In this document: positions 28,137 through 61,872 of the stretch, piece by piece
Layout: each line of letters begins with the position of its first letter
How positions within the stretch are numbered: the stretch's first letter is position 1
Source: Azolla caroliniana
Taxonomy: Eukaryota; Plantae; Polypodiophyta
DNA: 64,000 bases
Direction of reading: 5' to 3'
Assembly (NCBI GenBank): GCA_043228905.1
Contig: JBHGNT010000004.1
Span: forward strand, 3,286,001-3,350,000
The notes under the pieces: generated by a model
What the model was told of the DNA's origin: nothing
The model's input: only the letters and a program-made list of their open reading frames with translations
Databases searched by the model: none
Program-made: the position numbers and the translations under genes

Positions 28137-28544
28137 CCCGTGCCTCTCGAGCATTCTCCAAAACTATTCCTCCTCCACCGGCAGTAGGAAGCCACCCCCA
28201 CCAACCTTGAGCTCCCGTAGCGTTATGTTGGTGAAACGGTGTCCTATGCCGGCTGGATCTCGTAGAGTTTGGTCCGACGCGACCCCTTTCATCCGTAACC
28301 CACTGCCCTCCGGTAAGCATGCCGCGACTGGCCTCACCTTCTAGTCCACAGTCTTGTACCTTGTATACACGCAGGCCGTTCGATCAGACCTGACCCTTTC
28401 CCCAAAGTCGGTAATGACTTCGTACATTTCCATTGAGTTAACTAGAATCATCCAAAAATCCCCTCGGCTTTTGTCGCCGAGGGTCTCGCGGTTGTGCTCG
28501 TGGTTCGGTCACATTCTAGGCTTCACCCCCCACCCAACAACAGT

Positions 28545-29580
28545 TTCGGAGAATGCTTGGGAGGCACGGGAAGGCCTTCGCATTCTCACCGAAGGAGATC
28601 GGGTGCGTAGACCCGACGATCGTTGAGCCAATGGTTATCTTCACGGTACCGCATGTGCCGTGGAATCTCAAGTCGATTCCGGTACCCAGAGCTCACATCT
28701 CGAAGGTGATGGAGCTGCTGAAGCAGAAGGTGGAGATGGACATCCTCGAGCTGTCGAGCACCCCATATTCGAATCGGTGGTTTACCGTGCTAAAGAAGAA
28801 CGGCATGCTACGCTTCATTCAGGACTTGCAGACCATTCGGAATGCAGGAATCATGCCGACCATTGACGAGTTCGCGGAGGCCTTCGCCGGAAGGTCAATT
28901 TATTCAGTCGGGGATCTGTACTCAGGGTACGACCAATTCCAACTAGCCGTAGAGAGGAGGGATATTATGAAAATGCGGACTCCTCTCGGTCTTGTACGGA
29001 TGTGTACCCTTCCGCAATGAGGAACCAACTCGGTGGCGCACATGGTGAATGCAATGAAAAAAGTGCTGAAGGACTGCATCCTGGACATCACCATGCCGTT
29101 CTTGGACGACATCCCGATCAAAGGGTGTCCGGTGGAAGATATGGACAAATCAATTGGACCGGACGGTTGCCGGAAATTCATTGCGGACCATGTCAGCGAC
29201 TGCGAGAAGGTGCTACAAAGGCTGGAGGGCGCGCAACTCACCTTCTTCAGAGAGAAATCGACTTTTGGACAGTAAGAGATCATGGTCGTCGGTCACCTAT
29301 GCGGGCCTTATGGCCGGAAACCGTCCCCGGAAAAGGTAGAGGCCATCTCCGCAATGAAGGAAGACTACAAGTCGGTTACGAAAGTCCGGAGGTTCTTAGG
29401 CGCATGCGCGTTCTACCACATCTGGATTCCGCACTACGCACACGTCGCGGAGCTGCTCTACTGGTCGTTGAAGCAAGGGCGAAAGTTTGAGTGGAGCGGG
29501 GAACATACAGAGTCGGTCCGGAGATTGAAAAAAGTGCTTACCGTGGCACCGGCACTCCGGAAAGTGGTTTACAGTAAGGA
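28545..29580 (+). mobile_element. Degenerate gypsy RT fragment
   Basis: ORFs 28553-29020, 29033-29275 and 29282-29614 match the intact pol (FTVPHVPWNLK, PFLDD). Confidence 0.88.
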
Positions 29581-29589
29581 GGGAGTTAG

Positions 29590-30284
29590 TCTCCTAGTAC
29601 TCTCTACTCCCTAGTCCAAGACCCCTGCGGTCCCGCCTTGGAACCTACACGTACCCGCGGAATACCGCGACATCTTTGGTGAACCCGACGTGGAAAGGCA
29701 ACAAGGGAGGATGGAGTCGGAAGACGATGACTTCGCAGAGATGGTGGCTGAAGTGGTGTTGGAGTTCAGACGAGTGGTGGTGAGACGGGAGTCAGCGCGG
29801 CAAGCTATTGAGCGAGTGGTCGAAGGAGTCGGCCGTTTCAACGGGGACAAAGTCCCATTCTACTTGGAATCCTACAACGCAGAAATGGAGGAGAGAGACG
29901 TGGATGAGGTGTTGAGGCTGGAGTTCTTCTGTGAGGTCGTCCATGTCCGTATGCACGTGGTAGTGAAGGAGCTCCAAGCAGCTCATAGTTCGTGGGAGGC
30001 CTTCGAGGCCCCGGGGTGCAATGAAGGCGTTTCGAGAGTTCGAGCGGCGGCTTGCTCAGCTCCTGGAGCGGGAGCAAAGTTTGGTGGGGGCGGATAAAGT
30101 CCTATTGTTGGTTAGGTCGATCGACCGAGCGGAACATGAGGCCATCGGGATTGAGCTTGAAGAAGATGACGGAGTGAATGGCCTTACCGAGGACTGGTCG
30201 GAAGTCGAAAGAGTATGCTGACAATTGGACAAGGAGTGGTCCGGGAGAGGAAAAAGGAAGATAACGCGTGACGGCGTGTCATCA
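29590..30284 (+). mobile_element. Non-autonomous gypsy derivative, 5' part (LTR end, PBS-Trp, gag-like). Continues at 62341
   Basis: gcgaca-tctt-TGGTGAACCCGACGTG at ~29667-29692. Colinear with 5904-6497 and split by element D at CATCA. Confidence 0.82.
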
Positions 30285-31186
30285 TGTTAATCCTAGGCCG
30301 GACAACAAACTGACACAGGGTGTCCACTTAAGACACTTCACCAAAGGGTGTCACGACAAGATGACTTACGGCACAACACTTAATTAGACCTTAATCGGTT
30401 ACTTAGCAACACATCATTAACACGCTGTCGTGAAGAAAACCGCCCACAAGAGGAATCGGAGGAACAAGGCGTGGGAAACGGCTCTACACACACACGCGTG
30501 CCAAGAAGTACCTAAGGACGAAGTAGGCACATACGAGGATCCTAGGTGGGTAGATTCGGTTGGTATGCAGTTAATGCCAAACGGCCTCTTGACGGGCTAT
30601 AAAAGGAAGAGGAAGAAGAGAAGTCGGGGATCTCCCGCGGAGAGGACGAAGTGCTGCCGAACCGATTTCGGAGCTTCTCTCTCACTCCCGCTCTCTCTGT
30701 CTTCTGCTCCATCGCGTACCTGTGCAGGTTTCGAGGAGGCTTGCGCTGTTCCGTGGAACGCCCCGAGTGCGTCCTGCAGCACCTCCGACCTGTTTCCCCC
30801 TTCTGTGCGTCGCGACATACAGGGGTCGGCATCTGTTCGCCGCCCTGTTCGTTTTCGTTAGTATCTATTTCGTGCCCCACTGTGGGTTGTAATACTTTAG
30901 TCTGTTATTTCCTTGCATTCATAAGTACATACCTTTCGTTGTTGCGTCCATCTGCGTCGGCGTTATTTGTGATCTCTGTTTGTTGGGCCGTGTCCCTGTG
31001 TAATCGTCGGTTCTGCGCAATCGGAACTTCGGTTCTGTGTAATCGGGGTCTCTCTCTCTTACCTCTCTCTCTCTTGCTCTTCGGTTCAAGACCCCCGTGG
31101 TCCCTCCTCCTTTCTACACGCAAGGGCGTAGCAACCCCGACATCTTTGGTGAACCCGACGTGAAAGAGGCGGCAGAAGAGCAGGAA

Positions 31187-33313
31187 ATGAAGGGGGCGGA
31201 TCTTGCAGAGGCCATGGCTTCGGCCGTGGATCGGATAGTAAGCGCGCGCGAGGGCACCGGCGCCCTCGATAGAGCTATTGAGGCGGTCGTCGGAACGATC
31301 GGTCGATTCACCGGAAAAGATGCCACGAAGTACCTGGCGTCCTACGGTGCGGAAATGTTAATGCGGGACATTCCGGAAGACAGGCGCCTTGCCGGTTTTC
31401 CCCGAGTGGCGATGCCGAGCATCCACGCGGAGGTGCTCGAGGTGCGGGCGGAGAGCCGTACCTGGGAGGAGTTCGAAGGTCGGCTCCTGGAAAAATACGG
31501 ACTGGACGACGCGCTCCGGCTTTCGAAGCGAAGCTTCCTGGAGTGGGTGGAGTCTCCCGGGAAAGTAAGGAATGCGTCGGCACTCCTCCGGGAGTTCGAG
31601 GAGAACTTCGCGCGCCTTTCGGCGCTTGACAGGATGGTCCTGGATACAAGCCGGGTCCTGCTGTTCGTCAAATCGGTTGACGAGAGGGATCGGAGTCACG
31701 TGGGCGCCCTGCTAGAAACCGAAGACGGGCTGACAGCCGACTGGGCGGCGGTCAAGAGAGCCTGCGGCCGTTTCGACAAACGGCGAGAATGGGAGGATGA
31801 CAGAGCAACCGGGTCGGGCTCAGTCGCGGCGAGGAAACTCGAGCCGGCGCAGCCGGTGCGAAGGGAAGAGACTCGGGAGTGGCTGGAATCCGGTTCATCT
31901 CCGACCGGCGGGATCAGAGGCTCGACTGGAGGAGCTGCGTTGGAGGAACTGACGAGGGCGATAAAAGACCTCCAAATCGCACAAGCCCGCAGAGAAGGCG
32001 GAGGACCTGCTCGTGACCGACGGCCGGCGGCAGGGAACAGGTGCATGTGGTGCGACGGGGTCGGCCACATCCGAAAAGACTGCGGCGATTTCGCGGAGGC
32101 GCTGAGGAACCGGGTGGTGTACCTATGGGAAGGCCGGGTTCACGCCAACGACACGAGAAGGGCCCTAAACCGAAACGACGGGCGAGGCGGAATGAAGAGG
32201 TTGATGGAAGAGGCGGCGGCCCGACATGTGGAAACCGTCCACTACTCGGCGTCGGCCGGTATTCGAGTCGGGGGCGGCGAGGCCCGAAAGGAAAGCAAAG
32301 CCGGATTCTGGCCGACGATGCTGGAAGGCCTTGCCGGTGCAGGGCTAAAAGGGGAGGAATCGGACCGTGCGGAGAAACGGGTACGGGAGATGACCGGGTG
32401 GAGCGACCCGGTCGAGGAAAAGACGGGCTTCGTGGAAGCCGCTTGCCGGAACTACGAGGCTCTGGTAGAAGAGAAGCGGGTGGGGAAACCCGGGACGACC
32501 GGGCCCTCACAACGATACGAGACCCGGTCCGGGCCACGGCGGGACGAAGCCGGCGGGGCCAGTACGCAAGATAAACCCCAGAAGGGCGGGTACCGTCTGG
32601 GGACGGAGATAGAAAGAACCACGGACTTACGAAAGGTCCTGGAGGAACGGATCCTCGACAGCAAGGTGGAGCTGTCGCTACGGGAGGTGCTTGGAATCGC
32701 CAAGAAGGAGTTCCACGACTCCATCGTGGACTTGGTGAAACGGAAGAGGCTGTCAACGGAGACTGAACCGGAAAGACCGGTGGAAGTACGGACGACGCAC
32801 CTAGACGACATGGCGCTGGGAGAAGAGTGGGCGGAAAGCCACTATTCGAGACCGCACTGGGCCCGAGCGACCACGGAAACCCCGGTGAAGATCGGCGATG
32901 TCCAGGAACCGGTGATAGCTTTGGTGGACCACGGATCGGAGATCAATTTGATGTCCATGGACTTCTATAAGAAGGGCAAATGGCCGATCAACACCAAGCA
33001 CGGGTGGAAAATAAGGGCAGCAACGCGCGCCACCGAGGAACTGCACGGGGCCTGTCCGAATGTGCGAGTCAAGATCGGCGACGTCGAGATTGACCAGCAC
33101 TTCTTCGTGCAGGAGACGTCTTCGCATCCGGTCATACTGGGAGAGCCGTACATCACGGCGGCGCGGATGGAGACCAAGGTGTTGGACAATGGTTCGGCCT
33201 ACGCGAGGGTCAAAAGCCAAGACGGGCGCCATTCGGTCCAGTTTCTGACGGTACGGCCGAACCACGAACGTAACCGCGACTCCCTCGGTTCCGATAACCG
33301 AGAGGATTTTTAG
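31187..33313 (+). CDS. Gag-protease ORF of element G
   Basis: First ATG after the PBS is at 31187. Contains the CMWCDGVGHIRKDC zinc knuckle and aspartic protease LVDHGSEINLM..VILGEPY. Ends GAG GAT TTT TAG. Confidence 0.92.
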   Translation: MKGADLAEAMASAVDRIVSAREGTGALDRAIEAVVGTIGRFTGKDATKYLASYGAEMLMRDIPEDRRLAGFPRVAMPSIHAEVLEVRAESRTWEEFEGRLLEKYGLDDALRLSKRSFLEWVESPGKVRNASALLREFEENFARLSALDRMVLDTSRVLLFVKSVDERDRSHVGALLETEDGLTADWAAVKRACGRFDKRREWEDDRATGSGSVAARKLEPAQPVRREETREWLESGSSPTGGIRGSTGGAALEELTRAIKDLQIAQARREGGGPARDRRPAAGNRCMWCDGVGHIRKDCGDFAEALRNRVVYLWEGRVHANDTRRALNRNDGRGGMKRLMEEAAARHVETVHYSASAGIRVGGGEARKESKAGFWPTMLEGLAGAGLKGEESDRAEKRVREMTGWSDPVEEKTGFVEAACRNYEALVEEKRVGKPGTTGPSQRYETRSGPRRDEAGGASTQDKPQKGGYRLGTEIERTTDLRKVLEERILDSKVELSLREVLGIAKKEFHDSIVDLVKRKRLSTETEPERPVEVRTTHLDDMALGEEWAESHYSRPHWARATTETPVKIGDVQEPVIALVDHGSEINLMSMDFYKKGKWPINTKHGWKIRAATRATEELHGACPNVRVKIGDVEIDQHFFVQETSSHPVILGEPYITAARMETKVLDNGSAYARVKSQDGRHSVQFLTVRPNHERNRDSLGSDNREDF

Positions 33314-33372
33314 AGAGGGCTGCCAAGGCGTGGGGCCGCGACAGTCCGGACACCCCGGGAAAACCCCACACC
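33304..33372 (+). promoter_or_regulatory. Predicted -1 ribosomal frameshift signal (G GAU UUU plus downstream stem-loop/pseudoknot)
   Basis: The slippery heptamer directly precedes the gag stop. gggctg..cagtcc forms a stem, and loop gtgggg is complementary to ccccac at ~33364. Confidence 0.75.
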
Positions 33373-36300
33373 TGTACGATAAAACCGAAGAAACCTTGTA
33401 CCATAGGTAGGGAATTTTTGTTCTCCGACAGCGGAGCGTGTGCGATGGTCGGCATCGCCGGCCGAGAGAAAACAAAGACGGAGGCGAGACTTCGAGCGTG
33501 CGGAGTTCTCGGCCCGGACGAGGAAATCAACGGAGCCGTGGAGGCGGTCTCATTCGACGACACCTTGGGAATGCTGGGAAAGGTAGTCGAAGAAGGCCTT
33601 AACGAAGACCGGACGATACCGGTGTGTTCCGAGGAGATGTACGAAGTCATCGCGGACTTCGGTCGAGGGCTCGAGTCAGTTCGGACGGCCCACGTAAACA
33701 CCAAGTACAAGACTGTGGACCGGAAGGTAAGGCCAGTAGCGGCACCCTTACCGGAGGACAGCGCGTCGAGAATCAAAGGGGTTGCATCGGACCCTAGTCT
33801 ACGAGATCCGGCCTGCATAGGGCACACCTTCACTGACGAGACGCTCCGAGAGCTCAAAATCGGTGGGGGCGGGTTCCTAATGCCGGCGGAGGAAGACCGG
33901 TTTCGGAGAATGCTCGGAAGGCACGGGAAAGCCTTCGCATTCTCGCCGGAGGAAATCGGGTGCGTTGACCCGACGATCGTGGAGCCGCTGGTGATATTCA
34001 CGGTACCGCATGTACCATGGAATCTCAAGCCAATCCCGGTTCCGAGAGCTCACATCCCGAAGTTGATGGAGCTGCTGAGGCAGAAAGTTGATATGGGAAT
34101 TCTCGAGCCGTCGAGCGCCCCATATTCGAATCGATGGTTTACCGTACCGAAGAAAAACGGTTCGCTGCGCTTCATCCAGGACCTGCAGCCGGTCAATCGA
34201 GTGACCATTCGGAACGCAGGGATCGGACCGACCATAGACGAGTTCGCGGAGGCCTTCGCCGGAAGGTCAATTTACTCGGTCGGGGATCTATACTCAGGGT
34301 ACGACCAGTTCCAGCTAGCCGTGGAGAGCAGAGACATTACGACGATGCGAACTCCCCTCGGCCTAGTTCGGATGTGTACACTGCCGCAAGGAGGGACCAA
34401 CTCGGTGGCCCACATGGTGAATGCGATGAACAAGGTTCTGAGGGACTGTATCCCGGACATCACCATGCCGTTTCTGGACGACATCCCGATCAAGGGATGC
34501 CCGGTGGAAGAAAGGGACGAGACGATCGGGCCGGACGGATGCCGGCGATTCGTGGCGACGCACATCGACGACTGCGAGAAGGTGCTGCAAAGGCTAGAGG
34601 ATGCGAGACTCACCTTCTCCGGGGAGAAGTCGGCCTTCGGACAGTCAGAAATCATGGTGGTCGGACACCTGTGCGGACCATATGGCCGGAAACCGTCTCC
34701 GGCAAAGGTAGAAGCCATCTCCGCGATGAAGCCCGACTGCAGCTCGGTCACGGAAGTACGGAGATTCCTGGGGGCATGCGCGTTCTACCACATGTGGATC
34801 CCGCATTACGCACACGTCGCGGAGCCACTGTACGGGTTGCTGAAAAAGGGGCGAAGGTTCGAATGGCTAGACGAACACGCGGAATCGGTCCGGAAGCTGA
34901 AAGAGGCCCTTGCAGCGGCACCGGCACTCCGGAAGGCGGTATACGGGAAGGGTACCCCGGTATTCATAACGGTGGATACCAGTCCGACCGGGATCGGATG
35001 GGTCGTGAACCAGGAAGACGAGGACGGCAATCGGTTTCCGATCCGATTCGGCGCGAAAGTCCTCAGTGAACGGCAGCGAGGATACGGCCAGGTTAAACGC
35101 GAACTCTGGGGTATTGTTTCGGCGGTTAAGGCCGACAAAGACTACCTGATAGGGACAGAAGTGATCATCGAGACGGATTGCCTGCCGATTCTCGGAATGG
35201 TTTCCGGATGCGTGACTCCGGACCTGGCGATGCTCAGGTGGATAGCGTACATCAAGTCCCTGGACCCGGAAATACGACACCTTTCCGGGAAAGACAACGC
35301 CATGGCCGACATGCTTTCGAGGGCGAGGTTCGACGACGAGGGCGGCATGGTTTCGGAAGACGAAGAAGTCGGCGTGGATTTCTTCGAGGCGGCATACATA
35401 ACGACCGACGGGATGAGCACTCCGGCGCTTAACGAGTTCGACGCGAGCAAGTACGACGGGGAATGGCTGCAGATCGGCGGGTTTTTGAAGACAATGACGC
35501 CCGATGCGTCATGGACGAAGGACGAGGCCAACCGGATCCGGAAGAAAGCATATCGATTCTTTCTCCGAGATGGGCATCTATGGAAGCACCCGAAGAAGAG
35601 GGACGGCGTCCCGCTCCGAGTGGTGGCGATGAAGGAAGTACAGGAGGAGCTACTGGCGGCCTACCACGACAGCCCTTGGGCTGGACACCGTGGAACGTGG
35701 GCGACGTTTGAGAAGCTGAAGGGAAAGTACTGGTGGCCGGGATTGTACCGGGACGTGCATCGGTTCGTGTCAACTTGCGAGAGTTGTCAGATGCACTCGA
35801 TAGTCCGACACCGGGACGGGCTTCACCCTACGTACCCTCCGACTATCCACTTCAAATGGATGGTAGATCTAGTGACGATGCCGATGGGGGTAGGACAGAT
35901 GCGGTATCTGGTCCTAGCGCGGGAAGACCTGACGAACCAGGTGGAAGGCCGGGCCCTTCAGAACAAGACGACCGCGGCCGTGTGTCGGTTCCTAGTCGAG
36001 GACGTGATATGCCGGTACGGGTGCGTCGGGAAGATCGTGGCTGACCGAGGGGAGTTGGACGCCGAAGAGGCCGCGGAGCTGTTCGACCGGCTTGGAGTCA
36101 AGCTCTCGCTCACCACTGCGTACAATCCGGAGGCGAATGGAAAGGTGGAGCGCGGACACGGACCGATCGTCAAGGCGTTGATTCGGGCATGCGGAGGCCG
36201 AGTCGGTAACTGGCCGCAGTTGCTACCTTATGCTTTGTGGGCAGACCGGACCACGCACAGTTCGGTAACCGGGTACATGCCGACGAAGCTCATGTTCGGC

Positions 36301-36801
36301 CAGAAGCCGATCATGCCGATTGAACGGACGATCTCCTCGTGGGCAACGGTCGACTGGAGGGACGAGATGAGCCGGGAGGAGTTGTTGACCGCACGTATAC
36401 GACAGCTCGAGCGGAGACCGGAGGACGTGGCACTGGCTGCGGAGAAGCTCCGGGTGGCGAGGACGAAGAACAAAGCCCGGTTCGACCGAACGCACCGGCT
36501 ACGACCGAAGAAAATCGACGAAGGTGACTGGGTGCTCGTCTACGACAGCAGCCTCGACAACCAGCACCGAGCAACAAGGAAGTTCGCACGGAGATGGTTC
36601 GGGCCGTACACGGTACAGAGCGCCAACGACAACGGGACGTATCATCTGGCGGAACTCGACGGTACGAGAATAGCGATACCCGTGGCCGGGAAGAGGATCA
36701 AAGCTTTCAAGAAGCGGCACGACGACGAACCCGACCCGATTCTCCTGGACAGCAGCGACGACCGATCCGAGGCCGAGGAAGGGCCGGCAGGCGAAGAGTA
36801 A
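33304..36801 (+). CDS. Pol (RT-RNase H-integrase) of element G, -1 frame relative to gag
   Basis: The frame is open from 33304 to 36801. RT (LPQG, PFLDD), RNase H (TVDTS..KRELWG..ETDC), integrase (H..GH..C..C; DLV, DRGE, NGKVER). No chromodomain. Confidence 0.92.
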   Translation, partial: GFLERAAKAWGRDSPDTPGKPHTCTIKPKKPCTIGREFLFSDSGACAMVGIAGREKTKTEARLRACGVLGPDEEINGAVEAVSFDDTLGMLGKVVEEGLNEDRTIPVCSEEMYEVIADFGRGLESVRTAHVNTKYKTVDRKVRPVAAPLPEDSASRIKGVASDPSLRDPACIGHTFTDETLRELKIGGGGFLMPAEEDRFRRMLGRHGKAFAFSPEEIGCVDPTIVEPLVIFTVPHVPWNLKPIPVPRAHIPKLMELLRQKVDMGILEPSSAPYSNRWFTVPKKNGSLRFIQDLQPVNRVTIRNAGIGPTIDEFAEAFAGRSIYSVGDLYSGYDQFQLAVESRDITTMRTPLGLVRMCTLPQGGTNSVAHMVNAMNKVLRDCIPDITMPFLDDIPIKGCPVEERDETIGPDGCRRFVATHIDDCEKVLQRLEDARLTFSGEKSAFGQSEIMVVGHLCGPYGRKPSPAKVEAISAMKPDCSSVTEVRRFLGACAFYHMWIPHYAHVAEPLYGLLKKGRRFEWLDEHAESVRKLKEALAAAPALRKAVYGKGTPVFITVDTSPTGIGWVVNQEDEDGNRFPIRFGAKVLSERQRGYGQVKRELWGIVSAVKADKDYLIGTEVIIETDCLPILGMVSGCVTPDLAMLRWIAYIKSLDPEIRHLSGKDNAMADMLSRARFDDEGGMVSEDEEVGVDFFEAAYITTDGMSTPALNEFDASKYDGEWLQIGGFLKTMTPDASWTKDEANRIRKKAYRFFLRDGHLWKHPKKRDGVPLRVVAMKEVQEELLAAYHDSPWAGHRGTWATFEKLKGKYWWPGLYRDVHRFVSTCESCQMHSIVRHRDGLHPTYPPTIHFKWMVDLVTMPMGVGQMRYLVLAREDLTNQVEGRALQNKTTAAVCRFLVEDVICRYGCVGKIVADRGELDAEEAAELFDRLGVKLSLTTAYNPEANGKVERGHGPIVKALIRACGGRVGNWPQLLPYALWADRTTHSSVTGYMPTKLMFGQKPIMPIERTISSWATVDWRDEMSREELLTARIRQLERRPEDVALAAEKLRVARTKNKARFDRTHRLRPKKIDEGDWVLVYDSSLDNQHRATRKFARRWFGPYTVQSANDNGTYHLAELDGTRIAIPVAGKRIKAFKKRHDDEPDPILLDSSDDRSEAEEGPAGEE

Positions 36802-37728
36802 AGGCGGGCCGGTTTTCTCCGTGCCAACTTAATTTGGCGCATGCCGGTGGATGCGCGGTTAGGTGGGGGCGGATGTCGTGAAGAAAACCGCCCACAAGAG
36901 GAATCGGAGGAACAAGGCGTGGGAAACGGCTCTACACACACACGCGCGCCAAGAAGTACCTAAGGACGAAGTAGGCACATACGAGGATCCTAGGTGGGTA
37001 GATTCGGTTGGTATGCAGTTAATGCCAAACGGCCTCTTGACGGGCTATAAAAGGAAGAGGAAGAAGAGAAGTCGGGGATCTCCCGCGGAGAGGACGAAGT
37101 GCTGCCGAACCGATTTCGGAGCTTCTCTCTCACTCCCGCTCTCTCTGTCTTCTGCTCCATCGCGTACCTGTGCAGGTTTCGAGGAGGCTTGCGCTGTTCC
37201 GTGGAACGCCCCGAGTGCGTCCTGCAGCACCTCCGACCTGTTTCCCCCTTCTGTGCGTCGCGACATACAGGGGTCGGCATCTGTTCGCCGCCCTGTTCGT
37301 TTTCGTTAGTATCTATTTCGTGCCCCACTGTGGGTTGTAATACTTTAGTCTGTTATTTCCTTGCATTCATAAGTACATACCTTTCGTTGTTGCGTCCATC
37401 TGCGTCGGCGTTATTTGTGATCTCTGTTTGTTGGGCCGTGTCCCTGTGTAATCGTCGGTTCTGCGCAATCGGAACTTCGGTTCTGTGTAATCGGGGTCTC
37501 TCTCTCTTACCTCTCTCTCTCTTGCTCTTCGGTTCAAGACCCCCGTGGTCCCTCCTCCTTTCTACACGCAAGGGCGTAGCAACCCCGACAACGCGTAAGA
37601 TATAACAATGAGTACAGAACGGTAATCAATACTGAAAAGATTAAGGCAATAAGTTCTATTAATTATCCGCTGTCGATTACATTGTAATCGGGCCTTTATA
37701 TAGGTCTCCGGTGCGAAGTACAAAATGG

Positions 37729-38605
37729 TGCCAATCGGCACCTTATCGGGATCGGTCCGGATCCGGATCGGCATACCGATTCCGGTCTGTCTGTCCTCAT
37801 CTTCTCATATATTAATATATATTAAGATTACTAATTACAACAGTTCCCGAATAAACTATTCCTTTCACACTTTGGTTTGGACGTCTTTAAGCCTTCTTGC
37901 CAGTTGGGTAACACATGGCACACCCGTGGGACAGTACCTTGTACGTCGAACCCATTATCCGGCCGTTTTACGCTTCGTCCAAAATGTCCAGAATGCTTTG
38001 CTCCAGAATTTCCAATGGCTCGTCAGGAATCTGTTGTTGCTGTTGTGGTTGTTGCTGTTGTGGTTGTTGCTGTTGTGGCTGCTGTTCTGTTTGTGGCTGT
38101 GGCTGCTCCGTTTGTGCCTTCTCCGTTTGGGGTTGCGGCTCCGTTTGTTGCTTTGGCACTGGCGTTTCCTTCATTGCCAATCGGCACCTTATCGGGATCG
38201 GTCCGGATCCGGATCGGCATACCGATTCCGGTCTGTCTGTCCTCATCTTCTCATATATTAATATATATTAAGATTACTAATTACAACAGTTCCCGAATAA
38301 ACTATTCCTTTCACACTTTGGTTTGGACGTCTTTAAGCCTTCTTGCCAGTTGGGTAACACATGGCACACCCGTGGGACAGTACCTTGTACGTCGAACCCA
38401 TTATCCGACCGTTTTACGCTTCGTCCAAAATGTCCAGAATGCTTTGCTCCAAAATTTCCAATGGCTCGTCAGGAATCTGTTGTTGCTGTTATGGTTGTTG
38501 CTGTTGTGGCTGCTGTTCTGTTTGTGGCTGTGGCTGCTCCGTTTGTGCCTTCTCCGTTTGGGGTTGCGGCTCCGTTTGTTGCTTTGGCACTGGAGTTTCC
38601 TTCAT
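37729..38605. repeat. Tandem duplication (~446/431 bp) covering the LTR edge, tRNA-like site and Gln-rich end of the extra ORF
   Basis: tgccaatcggcacc starts at 37729 and 38175. The copies are near-identical apart from 15 bp in the (ttg/ctg)n tract. Confidence 0.92.
37916..37932 (+). promoter_or_regulatory. tRNA-Arg-like primer-binding site at the position where element D should have its PPT (duplicated at 38362-38378)
   Basis: TGGCACACCCGTGGGAC lies 2 nt from the LTR edge. On the element sense strand it reads GTCCCACGGGTGTGCCA, a CCA-ending tRNA 3' end. Confidence 0.65.
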
Positions 38606-39100
38606 TGGTTCCTCTGTTAGAGTTGTCTTTGGCTGACTGACCCCGGCCTGGTCCCCGTCTGGTCCTTGTTCCGGCGACGGTTCCTCATCACTAAGGTTGA
38701 CCGTTGCCGCCTTTCTCGCTTTTTCTTCCCAAAGTCGGGACCGCTCATAACTCTCAAACTGGATTTGAGCCTCCAACCGATCGTCGTCCAGTTGAGCTAC
38801 GAGCTGCCAGACCTGCACCAATTGTTCATCCGCCAGGGCTATGAAATCTTCGGCCAACTCATCCCTTATGGCGGTGAAGTCCTCTGGTGTCAGCGTATAA
38901 CAGTCGTCACCCTCCTTCCGCCGGTTTTCCACGTTCGCCCTGAGCAATTGGAGTTCCGCTGTATTCTGCGCCCATTTCGTCCACCATCGCACAGAGCTGT
39001 CGTCAAACAAAGCTTTTGGTCTTAGTGAGCCATGACCGGAGGATGCACTGGATCCGTTCGGCTCCCATCCGTGATTTATTTTCGGCGGCTTGTCGCTCCT

Positions 39101-40002
39101 CTTTCAATTGCTTGATGATTCAGACTGTGTTCGCCTCCTGCTCCCTATAATGCGACAATTGACTTTGATAGGTTGTTTGCAACCTCTGTAACACCATTGT
39201 CGCCCTTTCTTTTTCTTCATGGTTCTGCTTGTGGAGCTCCATCCGGTCCATCGCGGCTTCCTCTAATAGCTTGGAACTCTCAGCTCGTTCTTCAGCGAGT
39301 GCCACTGTGGCCCTATCAAATTCTTGCCGGAGCTCGGCCATTTGTTCCTGCTGTTGCGTATACTCCATTTCCAGCTGCTTGTAGTCCCAGTGTAGATGAT
39401 CAAAATCATCGGTCTTCTGCTTCAGCCTCTGGTTGATCTGTCGGCGCGCGCGGTCCTCCCGGTCCTTCTGTTGACGGAGTTCCTCCTTCAGCCTCTCGAT
39501 TTCCGTCTCCGCCATCCATCGCAACTTGTCTTTTTCGTGCAACAATTTCTCCTTTCAATTGCTTGATGATTCGGACCGTGTCCGCCTCTTGATCCCTATA
39601 ATGCGACAATTGACTTTGATAGGTTGGTTGCAACCTCTGTAACACCATTGTCGCCCTTTCTTTTTCTTCATGGTTCTGCTTGTGGAGCTCCATCCGGTCC
39701 ATCGCGACTTCCTCCAATAGCTTGGAACTCTCAGCTCGTTCTTCGGCGAGTGCCACTGTGGCCCTATCAACTTCTTGCCGGAGCTCAGCCATCCGTTCCT
39801 GCTGTTGTGTATACTCCGTCTCCAACTGCTTGTAGTCCCGGTGTAGATGATCAAAATAATCGGTCTTCTGCTTCAGCCTCTGGTTGATCTGTTGGCGCGC
39901 GCGGTCCTCCCGGTCCTTCTGTTGACGGAGTTCCTCCTTTAGCCTCTCGATTTCCGTCTCCGCCATCCAGTGCAGCTTGTCTTTTTCCTGCAACAATTTC
40001 TC
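39101..40002. repeat. 451-bp tandem duplication within the coiled-coil ORF
   Basis: ctttcaattgcttgatgatt at 39101 and 39552. The peptide WMAETEIERLKEELRQQKDREDRAR is duplicated. Confidence 0.9.
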
Positions 40003-41367
40003 CTTTTCCTCCTTTAGTCGGTCGTAAGCATGATGTCCTTTACGCAGGTTTTCCTCTGCCCGGCGGAGGTTCTCAACAGTCTTCTTTAATTCTTCTTCGG
40101 CCACCTTCTTCAAGTCGCGTTCGCGGCTCCGTAATGCTTCTTGTGCGGCAAGTTCATCTCGTAATTCCGCAAGCTCTTGGGCTTGCGCCGCATCTTTCTC
40201 TGGGACAGTTTTTGTCTCCGGGGTCTTATTCATGTGTACATCAACCGGAGTCACCGATGCTTGGATTTGCGTTGTAGTTAAGGCCATTTTGGCCATGTCT
40301 CCTGTGATCCGATCCAAGTCTTGTTCGAGGCACCGGATCCTTGACCGGGCCGTCTCCAGTTCATCGGTTGTGACGAGCAATCGTTCCGTTTGCGCTCTTT
40401 CTTCCGCCTCTATGCATCCGACTACTCCGGCAATTTGTTCTCCTATCCACCGGAGCCATTGGCTGCTGGTGCACTGTTGTTGCGTCTACATGGAGGGTTG
40501 GCTGATGGGTTCACTTGCCGGTGGCTTGTCCCGCCTTATTGCATCGAGCTGCTCTTCTGGTTCCGCATGCTGACCACTTTGTCGTTCTGGCTCTGGGTGT
40601 GTTTCGGCTAGCCGCCCCTTGTCTGCTTGTTCCTGGTCGGCTAAGGAGTTTGGCCTTTGTATAACTGGCTCTCGAGTGACGGGACTTGCCGGTGCTACCT
40701 GTTGTGCAGGGACTTCTGTGACCGGTTCCATCTGAACCGGTTCCGGTGCCTCCCTTGGCGTGGGATGCTCAGTGTGAGTTGCGGGCGTTCCATCCTTCTG
40801 TGGGTCCGAATGCTTCCCGGCTGATTCAACGGTGCTCTTCACCAGCCGCCGTTGGAGGTGGTCCGTGGGTTCTTCCTCCATCTCCTCCGCCTGAGTCCCG
40901 ACATTCATTCTTGCCGCCAGGGTGTCCGTTTCTTGCTGCACCGGTCGGTGGAGTGGGCTCTTCAGGGCCCGTGCTAGTGTCTCCTCGTGTGTGTTCGTCG
41001 ACCGCTTCCGGTTGGCGCGCTCCTTTGCCGCCTTCTCTGCGTCGGTCGTCTTCCCCTTAATGGCCTTGGAGGCCATTAACTATTGCCGTTTCGAAGCAGG
41101 TTTCGGGGTGCCGTTCGTTGCTCTCCCCCGCTTCTTGGTTTGGACGGGCTCAACAGGTGGCGCCAATAGGGTTCAAGCCATTGTGTCACCGCATGCCATA
41201 TTTTCTGGCCTTCCTTGTCGTCCTTACTCTGACGATATCAATAGCTGTACACAACCTGTCGGCGATCCCAATCCACCTTGACCCCTTCGTACTTCGTGAT
41301 AATCAAGCTTGCTCGGTTCTGAGGCATAACAGGGGGTTGAGGGTATACGTGGCCGAACTCATGGAGC

Positions 41368-44300
41368 ACGTGCGGAAGCAAGTATGAAGACCGAACAGAG
41401 GGAAGAAAACTCAGGTTTAATGGAGAGCTTGAGCTCACGCAGTATACGCAGGAGAGACAGAGAGAGTGAGAGAGGAAAACACAAGAGGTATATTTAAAAA
41501 ATACACAATCTCTATTGACCACACTCTATACATATGTGTGTTCAATGAACACTTTTATACAAGTCCTAGAAGGACTGACCGAAGTACTGACAGTACTTCA
41601 ATGCTCATTAAGAGCTCCTACACTAACTCCCAAATATATTCCTCACGGAATATCTTTCCTAATGGCCTCCCGGTTTACGCACCGATCCAGCCCTACCTAC
41701 GCACTGGTCTGTGTACCGGTTTACGCATTCGGCCTAACTGATTGGTCCCAACTGATCCGGTCCTCGGCTTCTTCAGCCGATCCGGCCGATGTTGAGCTTG
41801 TCTCTCAACACTCCCCCTCAAGCTCAACTTGAGGCTCTTCGGGATCTTTGGGCTCACAGCTCCGGTTCCTCCTGGTTTCACGCCTCGCTCGCGCTCCACG
41901 ACCTGTTCGACTCCGCGCGCTTCGACCCTTCCGGTCGGCTTGTCTGCTCATGTGGCCCTTATCAGCTCTTCTGCTGTTGCGGTGTTGACGCTTCTCTTGC
42001 TGCCTTTTCTTCCGCTTGGGCCTCGGTTGATTCAGCGTATCTGAATCAAACATTCGAACCGACTCGGCTACCTCTGATCGGTTTTCGCTCTTGTCTGAAT
42101 TGGCTGTCTCCAACTTGTCTTCGGTCTTCTTTCCCTCGATGGTGTCATCTTCCCCATGCGTGGTTGGCTTCGGCTCTCTCCTTCGGCTGCTCCCCTTCTG
42201 TCGGGTTCCGGACTTTTCCGCGGGTCCGCCCTCGGCTTCTTCAGCCGAACCAAAGTCGAACTCGACAACCGAGTCAACCAACTCGGTGTCGCGGTATCCA
42301 CTCCTTTCATGCTGCCTTGCTTGGTCGTTCGGGACTGTTCTCCCCCTCAAGTTTGGCACGTCGAGGTGACGCAATTCGAGTGCACCTGAGAATTGCCGCA
42401 ACTTGTCCAGACCAAGAGGCTTGGTGAAGATGTTGGCAGTCTGTCGATCCGTCGGAACGTACTGAAGTTCGACTTCACCGTAAAAGACACGCTCACAGAC
42501 GAAATGGTAGTGCACCTCAATGTGTTTGGTCCGTGCGTGGAAAACAAGGTTTTTCGAGAGCTGGATGCTGTTGAGGTTGTCGCAGTAGATCGTCGTCGGA
42601 TCTGACACCTCCTCTTGCAGGTCCCTAAGCAGCCGTTTCAACCATATGGTTTTGCATGTCGCGACAGCCGCTCCTCGGTACTCAGCTTCGGTGCTCGATA
42701 GTGCAACTGTCGGCTGCTTCTTACTGCTCCACGCCATCGCGGCACTCCCGAGGGAGAACGCGTATCCGGACGTGGATCGGCGATCGGCAGCGTTGCCAGC
42801 CCAATCAGCATTGGTGTAGCCGACTAACTGCGCGGCTGCACCGGTCCGATATAGCAGTCCCCGGTCCTTAGTGCCGTTGACATATCGAAGTATGCGTTGC
42901 GTAGACTGGAGGTGCTCCTCGGTAGGTCGCGCCATGAACTGACTGATCACTCCAACCGGATAACTGAGGTCGGGTCGGGTGATGGTCAAGTATATGAGGC
43001 TTCCGACAATTTGTCGGAACCTCGTCGGGTCGCATACCTTTCCCGTATCGGGACGAAGCTTGACGGTTCTATCCAGAGGAGTCGAGACGGACTTACAGTC
43101 GGCCATCCCGAATTTGAAGAGCATACTCAACACGTAATGACGTTGGCTGATCAATATGCCTTCGGGGGTACGGATCACTTCGATCCCGAGGAAGTAATGA
43201 AGGTCCCCCAGATCCTTCATGTCGAACGATGCCGCAAGCTGGAGCTTCACGCGGTCGATTTCACCTAGGTCGGCGCCGGTGATGACCAAGTCATCAACAT
43301 ATAGTAAAATACTGACCGGTCCGAGTCGACCTTTCCGGATGAGCAGGGAAGAGTCCGATTTTGATGTGACGAAGCCCATCCGACGCAGTTGTTGCGTGAT
43401 CTTCGCGTTCCAGGCACGCAGGGCTTGCTTCAGTCCATAAAGGGACTTCTTCAGTCGGCATACTGCCGAGGAGTTCGTTCCAGAGTGAAATCCGGGGGGC
43501 TGTACCATGTACACCTGTTCCTCAAGGTCACCTTGCAGGAACGCATTCTTTACATCCATTTGATGTAAGTGCCACCCCTTCACCGCAGCTACTGCAAGCA
43601 AAACACGGACGATCGTCATTTTCACAACTAGCGCAAACGTCTCATCGTAGTCGATGTCGTGTTTCTACGCGTAGCCCTTTGCCACTAGCCGAGCCTTGTA
43701 CCGGTTGACCGAGCCATTGGTGTTGTACTTGACCTTGTACACCCACCTACACCCGATCGGTTTTGCCCCTGTTGGTGCGTCAACCAAGTCCTAGGTCTCG
43801 TTCTCCGCCAATGCGTGCATCTCTTCCTCCATCGCGGCACGCCAATTCGCGTCTTTAGCCGCTTCTGCGTAGCTCTCCGGCTCACACACTTCCGCTACAC
43901 GGGTCATGTACACATAATGATGCGCCATGTACTCGTTGTATCCGAACCGCAAAACAGGATTCTTCTGGCGGGTAGATCGACGTAATCTCACATTAGCCGA
44001 TGTCGGGGCCTTCTCGGTCGATGCGAACTTCACCTTTAAAGACCCGTCACCGGTTCCCTCGGAGTCGGACTCGCGTCGGTCTGACTCGTCCCTATCCGTG
44101 CCGGAATCCGACACCTTCTTCTTCCCTTTCTCTTTGCGTGTAAGCCGTCTCCTCGACTTCTTGCGCGGGGAATGCACGGCCATGTCTCCACTACTCGCTG
44201 ACTCTTCATCGGACTGATCGTACCGACTCAGTCGTCCAATCGGTCCACTTAAACGGAGTGAAATCGGACTCTCTTCGCGGGTCTCGATTTCGGGTTCATC

Positions 44301-47144
44301 CGGAGGCATCTCGGCCTCGCTGATCTCATCGTCAGAACTCGGATTGGAGTCGGGGTTCGAAGTCGGGGGCTGGTACCAGGACGCGGACTCATCAAACACA
44401 ACGTCACGGCTAACACGCGCTTGTTTGGTGCGAGGGTTATAACACTTATAACCCTTCTGCTCGTCCGAGTAACCGACCAAGATGCATTTCTCGGCCTTTG
44501 CATCCAACTTCCTCCTTTTCTCCTTCGGTACATGCACATACGCAATGCTACCGAACACCCTCAAGTGTCGCAAGTTCAGCTTCGTTCCGAAATATAGCTC
44601 GTGCGCCGACACTTTGTCTCCGATCCGGTTCTGGATGTATACCGCGGTCCTTACCGCCTCAGCCCAGTAGAACTTGGGCAAGCTCTTCTCCTCCAGCATT
44701 GCTCGTGCCGCTTCCACAACTGACCGATTCTTCCTCTCGGCCACGCCGTTATGCTCCGGCGTGTATCTACAACTAAATTCGCGTCGAATTCCCATTTGTT
44801 GTAGGTAAACATTGAGTTGAACAGAAAAGTACTCTTTCCCGCCATACGATCGCAGGCACTTGATCTTTCGTCCTGTTTCCATTTCCACGAACCCTTTGAG
44901 GTCCCGGAAACAATCGAAGACTTCGCTCTTCCTCTCAATGAGGTAGATCCACGTGTGCCGCGTGTGGTCGTCGATGAAGGAGACGAAATATCGGCTCCCG
45001 CCAAGACTAACGTTTTGTGTCGGCCCCATACATCGGTGTGTATAAGGTCGAGCTTGTTCCGGCTCCAGTTTCGCTCGTTGGGGAAAGGAAGTCAGTGTTG
45101 CTTCCCGAGTTGGCAGGCTTCACAAATTTGTGCCTTTCGGCCACTAAATTTGGGCAATCCGAACACTACCTGTTTCGATTGCAGATCTTGAAGCTGCTGG
45201 TAGTTGACGAGGCCTATCCGCTTGTGCCACAAGTCAATGTCCGACTCGGATTTTTGTCCCTTCGCGAACATTGCGGTGCCGCCGTCAGTGGAATCGAGGA
45301 TGAACATCCTCCCGTCTCTGCGCCCTTGCGCAATCACACGACCTTCTTCCTCAATGAAGCACCTGAGGTGTGTAAACCGAACCTCCATCCCTTGGTCGAC
45401 GATCTGTCCGACCGAGACCAAGTTCTTCGTGATTGTCGGAACATGCGGCACGTTCATGAGTTTCCCTTTCTGCCCGACATGGCTAAGGGGAACTTCTCCG
45501 ACATTCGCGATCAGATGCGGAGTGTCGTCTCCAATTGTGACTACTCCAGGTTGTATCGGTTTTTCAAGGCTCGTCATGTGGTTTGATGCGCCGGAGTCTA
45601 CGTACCACACCTCGTCCGATATCGGGGTGGTCTGTTTCATTGAGTTTGCTTCGTGTCTCGTCACGAAGGCAGACCCTTCTCCGGCTCTCCCGGAGTCTTC
45701 GGCGTAGTGCGATCGCTACCGATTTCCCTTGTTGGTATGTCCAGAGCCATTTCCGGAACCGGTTCTCTCCGAATCGGTGCGCTTCTTCCAGCACTCACTT
45801 TCCCTGTGGCCTTTCTTGCCAAAGTACCAGCACTCCGCGATGACCTTCCCTTGCCAGTTCTCATCGCTTCGACTCCCCCTATTTCCGGAGGGTCCGGAGT
45901 TGCTATCGGCATCACTTCGGTGCCTTCTTCCATGATCTCGTCGGCCACCTCCATTGCGCGCTGACTTGCATCGTCCTCCACGTCCATGGGGCCTATCTCC
46001 CTTCGTGTACAACATTCTGTTGTCGGTGTGCATGCTTGTAGACACACCCGCGTGGTTCTCCTCTATTAGGAGCATTGACTGTAAGTCGAAAAAGGACGGC
46101 GTATTCTCCCAGGTACACATAGCCGTTTAGAACGCTCCGAACTTCGACGCCAAACCTCCGAGACAGATCTGGACCATCTCGCTCTCCTCGATGTTCACCT
46201 CTATGGAGGCGAGGGAGTCGCAAATATCCTTGATCTTCGAGGTATAGTCCGCCACCGACAAGTCGTGTTGTCGTAGGTTGCTCAACTCCTGTCGGAGCTG
46301 AAGCTTCCTGGCTGTGGTGCTCGCGGCGAAAATCTTCTTCAGATTTTCCCACGCACCCTTCGGCGTCTTTGCATCCCGAACATAGCTCAATAGCTGTTCG
46401 CCCACACACGACGCGAAGCAGTATAATACCCTGCTCGCCGATTGCTCCCACGACGGGAAGTCTCTGTGTGTCAATTTGGGTGCCGCGTCATTAGCTCCTT
46501 CAACATAACTCCAATAGCCGTGCCCGAGCAGGTACTGGTGCATCTTGTAGGACCAAGACGCGTAGTTGGTTCTGTCAAGCTTCTCTATTGGAAGTGAGCT
46601 CGCCATGCCTCTATCCATCGTTCTTCTTGTTCTTCTTCGTCAAGCTTTGTCGGCTGCAGAGAGGTTCTCAACCCTCGCGCTCTGATACCATGTAAAAAGT
46701 AACGTGCAGAAGCAAGTATGAAGACCGAACAGAAGGAAGAAAACTTAGGTTTAATGGAGAGCTTGAGCTCACGCAGTATACGCGGGAGAGACAGAGAGAG
46801 TGAGAGAGGAAAACACAAGAGGTATATTCAAAAAATACACAATCTCTATTCACCACACTCTATACATATGTGTGTTCAATGAACACTTTTATACAAGTCC
46901 TAGAAGGATTGGCCGAAGTACTGACAGTACTTCAATGCTCATTAAGAGCTCCTACACTAACTCCCAAATATATTCCTCACGGAATATCTTTCCTAACGGC
47001 CTCCCGGTTTACGCACCGATCCGGCCCTACCTACGCACCGGTCTGCGTACCGGTTTACGCATTCGGCCTAACCGATCGGTCCCAACTGATCCGGTCCTCG
47101 GCTTCTTCAGCCGATCCGGCCTATGTTGAGCTTGTCTCTCAACA
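41368..47144 (-). mobile_element. Degenerate Ty1/copia element E nested in D
   Basis: LTRs 46691-47144 (5') and 41368-41810 (3', outer ~11 bp deleted), about 15 mismatches. PBS TGGTATCAGAGC ends at 46679 and PPT agggggag lies at 41811-41818. gag 46127-46618, protease WYVDSGAS, integrase 43791-45029, RT/RH 41805-43625. Confidence 0.93.
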
Positions 47145-50100
47145 AATAACATATCTTCGCCGCCCTGTGTCTTGTAGCCCTTGCTGGCGAGAGAGTACTC
47201 ACCGAAATATTTGATGAGCTGCTCGGAGGTCGGATTATCGATCGTGTAGATGCCTCCCTCCAGAAGGCCTGTTAACGCACGGATCGCCTCCTCCGTGATC
47301 ACCTCTGTGTCGATTTCTTTGATAATTTTTTTGGTCTTCTTGTGTGGCGCCGCCTCCATTATCGTCAAGAAACCCTCCAGTCTGTGTTGTCATAGCCATT
47401 TTTTGGCGGCTTCAGACAGTGTTTGGCAATCCATCTTTGCGTCAAGGTCGGAGAGCGTTGGCGAGGTTTGATGGTGGGGAGAGTGTGAGAGAGAAAGTTC
47501 TGAGTGAGGGGGTTCTCTATGCATGAGCTCTCTTCGATTGATCTTCACGCGTCTGTCTGCGTCTGTTCTCCTTGGTTCGCGAAAGGAGAAGGTCTCGATG
47601 CGTGGGGGTTTTTCTCTCTACATCTTGGCGCCTTTTTCGAGCCTCCGCATGTGCAGGTCGTGTACTATAATAGCATTGCGTGCCATGTGGCGGTGGTTTA
47701 ATGTCCTATTCATAGCCTCCTCGTACCTTTTCGACGTGCCTCTTTACTCATCGTTGGCATGGCCGTCTGTCGGACCCTTACCTGGAACGCGCACCTTGCC
47801 GGCCTCTTGACGGTTTGCCATCGTTTTGCTTTCCCCGGTTGCCGGCTCGTGCTCCTCCTTACCGGCTTGGTGGCAGTCGTTTTCCTCACATGTTGCCGTT
47901 GTGGTTGGCCTACCGGCGTCCGATTCGGCGCCGGCCCTTCGTTCAAATGGGTTCTTTGGCATAGGTCCTTTGTATGGCTTTAGTCTAAATCCGTTGACCC
48001 ATTTACCCAGCACCTCGCTGGCAAGTGTCCCTAACTAGTAAGACCCATTGAACCCGCGTGTGATCCAGTACGGTCCGGTCCATCTAAACCGTAGTTTGCC
48101 TGGCATTTTACCCATCCGGGTCTGGAACACTAGTATCGGCTTGCCGATTTCGAACATCTTTTTGTTTCCCTTCCGGTGACAATCTACAAATGCTTTCCGT
48201 CGCCGTTGTTCCAATTCCAGGTGCATGATGCTCGCCAGTCGGTGTTCTTCTAGGTCACATAGAGCCTTTAACCGAATTGCCTCTGATTCCTTTTCATTGA
48301 GTCGTTCCTGAATCTGAATCCGTAAGTTCGGTACCTGGAATTCGACCGGCATGACTGCCTCTAATCCGAATGCTAACCAGAACGACGTTGTTCGGATGCT
48401 TGTTTTGTACACTGTCTGGTAAGCCCAAAGCGCACTATGCAGCTTCGTGTCCCAATCTGTCCGATTTTCATTGACGATCTTGCGTAGGATATTCTATAGC
48501 GTTTTGTTTGTTGACTCAGCTAACCCGTTGGCTTGTGGATAGTACGGGGTGCTCCGTTTATGTACTACCGCATAGAATGACGTCAAGCTCTCCACTACTT
48601 GTGCTAGAAAGTGCCCTCCTTGGTCTCTTATCAGCTCTATGGGGCATCCATACCGGCACCAAATGTATTCGTATAAGAATTTTGCCATCGACGCCGCGGT
48701 GTTGTCTCGTAAGAGTTTGGCTTCCACCCATTTAGTGCAGTAGTCCGTCGTGACGATCACATACCGGTTGCCAGTTCTCATTGCCGGTGGTTTAAATGGT
48801 CAGACAAAATCTAGTCCCCATTTCTGAAATGGTTCTAGCAGTAGTACTAGCTGGTGCGGCATCCTAGCTTGTTCCGTTGGCTGGCCCATTGGCTGGCATA
48901 GATCACACTCTTTCGCGTACCGGACTACGTCTTTCAATGTAGTCGGCCACCATAGGCCACTTTGCCATATCTTCCTTGCCATAGCATCCCCGACATAATG
49001 GCCTCCGGCGACTCCGCAGTGTGCTTCCCGTAGTATTACCTCTTTCTAGTCGCTGCGCACCGCTCGTCGCCATATACCGTCTGCACCTTTGTGGTATAGC
49101 GTGTCCTGTAATAAACAGAAGTGCCGGCTTTGTACCGCCAAGCACTTCCTCTTGTCCCGGTTCATCTCCTTCGGAGGCAATCCGGTGCTCAGAAATTGGT
49201 GCATATTCGTTAGCCACTTATCTTCTGGTGCCACCGTTTCATCTGTTGTCGTTTCCGCAGTGACTCGAAATAGCTCAACATCTGGAAACTCGTCCAGTAC
49301 TCCGTCGCCGATTTCGCCGGAATCTAACCGGCTTAAATAATTTGCTACCGCATGTTGTATGCCGGGTTGGTGGAATATCTTGAATTCGAATTCCTGTAAT
49401 AGCAAAGTCCATCGGGCCAACTTACCGGTAAGTGACGCTTTGGACACTAGGTAGAGGAGTGTCGAGTGATCTACATGGAAGGAAAACTTTCTTCCCAATA
49501 AATAGTGCCTGAATTTTGTTACGATGTAGATCATGCCTAAAGCTTCCCTTTCCGTGGTGGAGTAATTTCGTTCGGCTTGGGATAACTTCCGGCTTGCGTA
49601 ATATACAGGCCGGTACCGTCTTGGCTCCGTAAGTTGCATCAGCACACTCCCGATTGCTATGTCGGACGCATCCACGAACACATGAAATTCCTTCGCCCAA
49701 TCCAGGGGTTGCACTACCGGCGCTTGTGACAATAGAACTTTGAGTGCCCGGTACGCCTTGTCTTCGGTGTCGGTCCACTATTCGGTGTACCGCAACATGC
49801 AGTGGTGTAGTTAGGTCCGCCAAATACTGGAGCATTCGGCTATGCCAACGGATTTGGCCTAAGAAACGGCTCAAGGCCTTCACCGTTGTTGGTGCCGGGG
49901 TCTCCAGGATCGCTTTTACTTTGTCTGGATCCACGGCGATGCCCTCCTTGCTTACAATGTGCCCCAGTAGCGTTCCACTAGACACGCCGAATACACACTT
50001 CGCCGGAGTCAGGCTTAGCCAGTAAGTCCTACACTTTTCTAGACACAGTCGGAGGTGCTGAAGGTGGTCTCCTTCCCGACTGTAAACGGCGAAGTCATCG

Positions 50101-51525: not shown

Positions 51526-51526
51526 A

Positions 51527-52997: not shown

Positions 52998-53033
52998 TTT
53001 TTTATTTTTTCAAATTTTATTGTTTCAAATTTT

Positions 53034-61861: not shown

Positions 61862-61872
61862 CGTGGTCGCCA
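61862..61872 (-). promoter_or_regulatory. Primer-binding site of element D (TGGCGACCACG, tRNA-Arg-like)
   Basis: Lies 7 nt (tagtttt) downstream of the 5' LTR on the coding strand, just upstream of gag. Confidence 0.7.

Follow-up and report, generated by a model that had tools for sequence, protein, structure and literature searches.

How does a long terminal repeat (LTR) retrotransposon start its second cDNA strand when the position of its polypurine tract (PPT) is taken by a copy of a tRNA 3' end? Element D raises this question in the 64,000-nt stretch of Azolla caroliniana DNA that we analyzed (hereafter the window). A first reading made from the letters alone (the sequence-only reading) had placed D at 30285-62340 between copies of the target-site duplication (TSD) CATCA, with its TATA box, gag, pol and an extra ORF on the minus strand, and both the bounds and the orientation held on closer analysis. 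The features of D are as follows.

30280-30284, no strand: left TSD copy CATCA, from the sequence and from an empty site in paralogous host sequence
30285-30425, minus: U5-side piece of the 3' LTR, 133 of 142 columns identical to 61880-62021
30426-37590, plus: nested gypsy element E, which splits the 3' LTR of D (4-bp TSD ACGC; LTRs identical at 716 of 717 positions)
37595-37913, minus: U3-side piece of the 3' LTR, beginning TGTTA, 304 of 319 columns identical to 62022-62340
37968-41367, minus: extra ORF after pol on the sense strand, coiled-coil-like and broken in this copy
47858-55639, minus: pol and the C-terminal part of gag (zinc knuckle, protease, reverse transcriptase [RT], RNase H, integrase)
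60886-61824, minus: N-terminal part of gag (PF03732), from a domain search
61862-61872, minus: 5' primer binding site (PBS) TGGCGACCACG, 11 nt, started by TGG, 7 nt after the 5' LTR
61880-62340, minus: whole 5' LTR, 461 bp, with a TATA box at 62129-62122
62341-62345, no strand: right TSD copy CATCA, from the sequence

Element D is a Ty3/gypsy LTR retrotransposon, having direct LTRs (TG...CA), a TSD and the domain order gag-PROT-RT-RH-INT, and its empty site lies at 6493-6497 within the paralogous host sequence. Because all of its genes (gag, protease, RT, RNase H, integrase) and its sole canonical TATA match, found in minus sense only and in this LTR, read on the minus strand, the right-hand LTR is the 5' one. 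The copy is old and damaged, with LTRs about 95% identical (437 of 461 columns, 3' pieces versus 5' LTR), nested insertions and a tandem duplication across the site of interest. Its pol and gag C-terminal region is broken by an insertion at about 50676-54169, and its RNase H deviates at one of the four acidic residues, all of which are retained in close relatives. The extra ORF matched no Pfam family above that family's cut-off, and its stop lies about 35 nt ahead of the 17-mer described below. Two further features of this copy are a 451-bp tandem duplication within the coiled-coil ORF (window 39101-40006) and the insertion itself, which is 3.5 kb long, AT-rich, placed between protease and RT, and carries an end sequence repeated at both borders that has an 82% match in metagenome locus L006 (687-837).

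A polypurine tract before the 3' LTR, as expected of Ty3/gypsy elements, is missing from D. The sequence-only reading had seen no purine run there, correctly so, as the 30 nt ahead of the 3' LTR hold a longest purine run of 4 and a richest 15-nt window of 8 purines. The same 30 nt of three control LTR elements in the window gave longest runs of 5, 9 and 6 and richest windows of 11, 12 and 9 purines per 15, two of these controls being only modestly richer than D, and element E, as an internal control, has a G-rich tract before its own 3' LTR. Four related metagenome loci, introduced below, are by inspection likewise without a purine tract. The position is instead held by a 40-nt cassette made of 17 nt, a 13-nt insert and a 10-nt T-arm match.

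37914-37915, minus: 2-nt spacer (CA on the plus strand) between the CCA end and the LTR, from the sequence
37916-37932, minus: CCA-ended copy of a tRNA 3' end at the PPT position, about tRNA positions 59-76, one base short
37933-37945, minus: 13-nt insert after the T-loop TTCGA, with a 4-bp hairpin (37934-37937 with 37941-37944)
37946-37955, minus: second block, T-loop and 5' T-stem strand (about tRNA positions 49-58), by sequence likeness
38175-38620, no strand: 446-bp tandem duplication holding the ORF tail, the cassette (38362-38401) and the first ~185 nt of U3

Read in the sense of the element, the order is GTCCCACGGGTGTGCCA, then TG, then the 3' LTR, while 37916-37932 on the plus strand is TGGCACACCCGTGGGAC, which reads as a PBS on the strand opposite to element sense. 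The CCA end had been placed 2 nt from the LTR edge and does lie there (LTR end at 37913), 2 nt being the usual length that integrase removes from cDNA ends. The 17-nt site is present as first described; that description was incomplete, in that tRNA likeness resumes 13 bases further upstream in a second block, GGGTTCGA, with the shape of a tRNA T-loop and T-stem. Under standard tRNA numbering the first part spans positions 59-76, as much as a full PBS covers, with the loop-out adjoining position 58, a base that is usually methylated. This T-arm likeness (37946-37955), the duplication of the site and the splitting of the 3' LTR by E had all escaped the sequence-only reading. Allowing up to 2 mismatches, the window holds two occurrences of the 15-nt core of the site against 0.21 expected, one being the site and the other its copy at 38362 in the 446-bp duplication. 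That duplication (window 37729-38620) may stem from a template switch during reverse transcription. A tRNA gene or SINE insertion was rejected as the identity of the cassette, which shows neither a cloverleaf nor A and B boxes: ARAGORN called no tRNA there, Rfam gave no match up to E 10, and the B-box consensus was not found in D's cassette, being absent from four of the five cassettes.

We assessed whether the cassette belongs to the family using contigs of four of 17 runs at the 3' junction (X1, X3, X5 and X11, with organism labels A, B, A and C, from three studies; X1 possibly shares its source with the window), with 1152-3140 fitting contigs per run. The cassette bins (37913-37952) formed the highest or second-highest coverage peak of the stretch in all four runs, at 5-7 times the depth of the adjoining LTR bin, summed contig depth not being a measure of copy number. 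In the order X1, X3, X5, X11, depth was 495,812, 274,574, 189,414 and 148,868 in bin 37913-37932, 83,981, 39,417, 35,231 and 20,914 in the adjoining LTR bin, and 45,324, 16,345, 10,244 and 4,798 in the bin past the cassette, with the elevation spanning the 13-nt insert and the T-arm block too. Such a coverage shape implies that many diverged copies share the 40 bases of the cassette. Only 37922 varied inside 37906-37954 among the 40 variants listed, with G making up 94-99% of depth; we do not take A/G at this position as evidence of tRNA identity, given possible C-to-T decay and a metagenome search pattern that forced A. None of the 12 indels listed was an insertion at the bulge position, and one of the 32 contig pieces listed spans the LTR-cassette junction (X11, 37832-37956). 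The loose contig ends listed are uninformative on PPT-bearing variants, the known junction not being among the 5'-side entries listed. Two other blocks reach coverage peaks as high as that of the cassette and are likely conserved cis elements, namely a palindrome-rich block of U3 (37753-37792, 62186-62211) and a block of U5 (61900-61951).

Beyond the family, a metagenome search with an exact 18-nt pattern (LTR end, spacer and 11 site bases) returned six loci, the pattern finding site-bearing elements only and leaving relatives without the site uncounted. Four of the six (L002, L003, L004, L006) are relatives of D with the extra-ORF tail in the same orientation: extra-ORF homologues lie on the strand used in D in L003 and L004 (27-47% across 50-98 residues) and in L006 (78% across 32 residues), and L002 has a short ORF-tail likeness only. 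Their LTR sides do not align with D's, and the six site positions left free by the pattern match D at 5, 5, 6 and 5 (L002, L003, L004, L006), the chance of at least 5 of 6 being about 0.005 per locus. The T-arm block is retained in D, L003 and L004, partial in L006 (no 5' T-stem strand) and altered in L002. As in D, TATA-like boxes of L002 and L003 point away from the site, whose place is therefore at the U3 end. The remaining two loci, L001 and L005, lack extra-ORF likeness, match at 0 and 4 of the 6 free positions and are likely chance matches, and searches of viral and prokaryotic collections found no copies of the element. At 14-22 of its LTR, L002 has the first nine bases of D's 5' PBS motif at the start of U3, possibly by chance or possibly as part of a bipartite PBS as in Ty3. 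Together these family copies and diverged relatives bear out conservation rather than a local deletion or rearrangement, and we read the site as real, family-wide and conserved beyond the family, its mechanism being what we infer from sequence.

At the other end, the PBS had been called normal, and an 11-nt site 7 nt from the LTR agrees with this; contigs of four runs (X1, X3, X11, X13) cover it in every run, with no variant inside it among the 40 variants listed. Because Athila elements have an AT-rich spacer of 3-6 bp between LTR and PBS, according to the available text of bioRxiv 10.64898/2026.03.20.713144, the 5' end of D looks ordinary. Its acceptor type is probably that of tRNA-Arg(CCG/UCG), and Arabidopsis ArgTCG and ArgCCG 5' fragments, as given in the available part of PMC3574835, imply an acceptor strand that fits the site with one G-U pair. 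Published papers searched for plant tRNA-Arg 3' ends yielded 5' fragments only.

Candidate tRNAs for the cassette were collected with a site-derived pattern from viral and prokaryotic sequences and are non-host proxies. Three viral loci comprised Arg(TCT), Glu(TTC) and one without a tRNA, while 53 of 104 prokaryotic loci were called as tRNAs, 40 of them Arg (TCG 20, TCT 10, CCT 7, CCG 2, GCG 1). The tRNA-Arg type proposed by the sequence-only reading is thereby borne out by proxies, and the cassette end appears arginine-type when judged on prokaryotic and viral tRNAs; the UCU anticodon is putative. The cassette and the 5' PBS have different acceptor sequences. We discarded the idea that the cassette primes itself on the 5' PBS, their pairing (-16.6 kcal/mol) being no better than background (mean -17.6 kcal/mol, sd 4.7, 8528 windows).

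As pairing partner we used a natural proxy, tRNA-Arg(TCT) gene L008, picked by likeness, with RNA parameters standing in. The strand opposite to the element sense pairs with it over 10 positions, then, after one bulged tRNA base, over 7 bp, and, after a 13-nt loop-out, over 10 bp. Adding the T-arm block moved the pairing energy from -31.3 to -43.9 kcal/mol in D, from -27.7 to -44.7 in L003, from -29.0 to -40.2 in L004, from -31.3 to -36.2 in L006 and from -24.4 to -31.8 in L002, so that the block contributes 11-17 kcal/mol in D, L003 and L004 with this proxy tRNA-Arg tail; these energies are partly circular because the proxies came from a pattern built on the site.

From this we propose, at a probability of roughly 0.55, that a second host tRNA-Arg anneals to the minus-strand DNA at the cassette and primes the plus strand. 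One tRNA-Arg would prime the minus strand at the ordinary 11-nt PBS; RNase H would then remove the template RNA and expose the site on minus DNA, where a different tRNA-Arg could pair in three stretches: 10 bp, then 7 bp beyond a one-base bulge, then about 10 bp of T-arm beyond the looped-out 13-nt hairpin. RT extension from the CCA would give a cDNA end carrying 2 extra bases, after which RNase H would remove the tRNA and integrase would trim the 2 bases. Primer removal seems feasible because close relatives retain all four RNase H acidic residues, and, with two distinct acceptor sequences in use, the two ends of the genomic RNA would not anneal to one another. Counting against pairing in trans are the cassette being one base short of a standard tRNA end, the T-stem and T-loop changes of L002, the lack of the 5' T-stem strand in L006, and the fact that a single piece among the 32 listed spans LTR and cassette. 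Whether this extends to a clade of non-flowering-plant gypsy elements without a PPT, priming both strands from two tRNA-Arg species and holding the second of them by its entire T-arm through a split site with a hairpin between its parts, we regard as an even call.

A serious rival, absent from the sequence-only reading though in our view less likely, is a cis mimic: a tRNA-like stretch of the element's RNA escapes RNase H, is cleaved just after the CCA and primes the plus strand, which would make the cassette an unusual PPT shaped as a tRNA primer, with a folded T-arm and about 10 paired bases. Position and cDNA end would then be identical to those of a PPT, RNase H is intact in relatives, and, as the 5' PBS pairs with the 11-nt acceptor strand only, RT may recognize a primer with a folded T-arm. 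L002 fits this fold better, its T-stem mimic being kept by a compensatory change while its T-loop is changed. Across six rows (two near-identical), 4 of the 9 pairs of the proposed structure are altered on both sides, which 6 of 500 shuffles also reached (not a probability); for the inner hairpin, 3 of 4 pairs are so altered, a pattern that favors the fold and yet suits pairing in trans and in cis alike. Against folding in cis, the predicted T-arm fold has the lowest energy in just two of the five cassettes and none beats its shuffles (z from -0.99 to 1.01 with RNA and from -0.34 to 1.85 with DNA parameters), which favors pairing in trans. Position 37955 has the pairing base in 27-35% of depth, and its majority base breaks the first cis pair while still permitting a G-T pair in trans. 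We also know of no reason why a mixed, GC-rich hybrid should resist RNase H.

Returning to tRNA priming, an improbable alternative gives the cassette another job (packaging, strand transfer, small-RNA decoy or Pol III factor binding), with the plus strand started from an unrecognized RNase H-resistant fragment. The second tRNA site of Drosophila gypsy, dispensable for cDNA synthesis in the available text of PMC1635307, lends this some plausibility, whereas the cassette's CCA ends exactly at the primer end needed for the observed LTR edge, and the B-box consensus is missing from all cassettes except one. More doubtful still is a bidirectional element, as the sequence-only reading had offered, in which antisense RNA from the 3' LTR would use the cassette as an ordinary PBS and RNA of either strand would be copied. 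Read on the plus strand, the site does look like a model PBS set 2 nt past an LTR end, and it exceeds the 5' PBS in length; against this, the minus strand carries every gene as well as the only canonical TATA match, and the one-way TATA matches of D, together with a box in L003 that also reads away from the site, weakly disfavor the idea. A clean purine tract is missing from the other end as well (longest run 7, with 11 purines of 15, followed by a CCA-ended site), so that a tRNA-type primer would be needed for the second strand all the same. A local rearrangement, recombination or chance event in D alone, suggested by the age and damage of this copy (LTRs about 95% identical, a duplication over the site), is largely refuted because the site persists in runs under three organism labels and in the four diverged metagenome loci, and direct LTRs, a single TSD and the family-wide site likewise give no support to the head-to-head recombination that the sequence-only reading had entertained.

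To place D among known elements, we compared it with published clades and priming systems. A search for RVT_3/RNase_H found none in P0002, P0004 and P0006 (control P0113 was positive), and the gap from RNase H to integrase is about 100 residues, with no extra RNase H domain. This separates D from Tat elements (TatI-III, Ogre, Retand), which have a tRNA-Arg PBS (confirmed for Ogre in the available part of PMC9289625) and an extra RNase H in pol, and aligns it with Athila, which likewise lacks the extra archaeal-type domain. The Athila side of the OTA superclade also shares with D a 5-bp TSD, an extra ORF after pol, no chromodomain hit and an AT-rich LTR-PBS spacer, as far as the available text of PMC6317226 and bioRxiv 10.64898/2026.03.20.713144 goes; Athila nevertheless has a tRNA-Asp/Asn-type PBS and a conserved PPT junction, whereas D has a PBS fitting the Arg(CCG/UCG) acceptor and no PPT. 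Phygy and Selgy differ in having a 4-bp TSD, a tRNA-Trp or Ala PBS and no extra ORF (PMC6317226, available part), against the 5-bp TSD and extra ORF of D. In a quick tree built on 150 columns of the RNase H region, with no labelled references (120 input proteins, 2 dropped by a coverage filter), D grouped with close relatives and next with proteins of the non-flowering plants Adiantum and Cryptomeria, those of the Rosaceae Malus, Rosa and Prunus standing apart. D is best called an unclassified non-chromovirus gypsy element on the Athila side, judged on the clade table of PMC6317226, whose per-element list may hold relatives.

Among known priming systems, Ty3 resembles D in its tRNA at the 5' PBS, its primer end just upstream of U3 and its RT-RNase H-integrase order, and the bipartite PBS of Ty1 and Ty3 is a precedent for split tRNA pairing (PMC5371799, available text). 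According to the same text, in Ty3 and HIV-1 the plus strand starts from a self-encoded RNA purine tract, which D lacks, and their extra segments are RNA complementary to the tRNA, whereas the RNA of D is identical to the tRNA end and its minus DNA alone is complementary. Drosophila gypsy, like D, has a second tRNA site near its 3' end; its two sites are for tRNA-Lys2, the second binding the same tRNA on genomic RNA via the anticodon and T stems rather than being an inverted 3'-end site at the PPT position (PMC1635307, available text). In the parts of the sources at hand, Helenus TRIMs carry a tRNA-derived sequence in the LTR, likely a Pol III promoter, and retain PBS and PPT (PMC10886601), and Culex cqgypsy_1 has two whole tRNAs inserted at its 5' PBS region (PMC3286476).

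The available text of PMC5371799 and PMC10886601 regards PPT priming of the second strand as general in retroviruses and LTR retrotransposons. The sequence-only reading knew of no dual-PBS, PPT-less design, and our literature search, whose scope excluded subscription papers and Repbase notes, likewise found no published LTR element with a tRNA-primed plus strand or an inverted PBS replacing the PPT, nor did the one supplement of PMC5389709 that was searched hold a match. A thriving, high-copy family that has no PPT would demonstrate that the second-strand step can be rebuilt. It would also offer a natural experiment on the demands that RT and RNase H place on a plus-strand primer, and would present host tRNA fragments with a second target. 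Such elements would be missed or inverted by annotation software that requires a PPT or that takes orientation from the best PBS match. Should the cis mimic be true, the priming signal would still be new.

The surroundings of D hold several other elements. Element E is very young, with two long open frames and a PBS starting TGGTGA, which we take to be of tRNA-Trp type, and it fits the Phygy description (4-bp NCGN TSD, tRNA-Trp); older relatives of it lie near 11710-15318, 21012-22686 and 28137-29580. Three copia elements have ordinary TGGTATCAGAGC primer sites (41368-47144, 55657-60890 and 22687-28137), the first two being nested in D.
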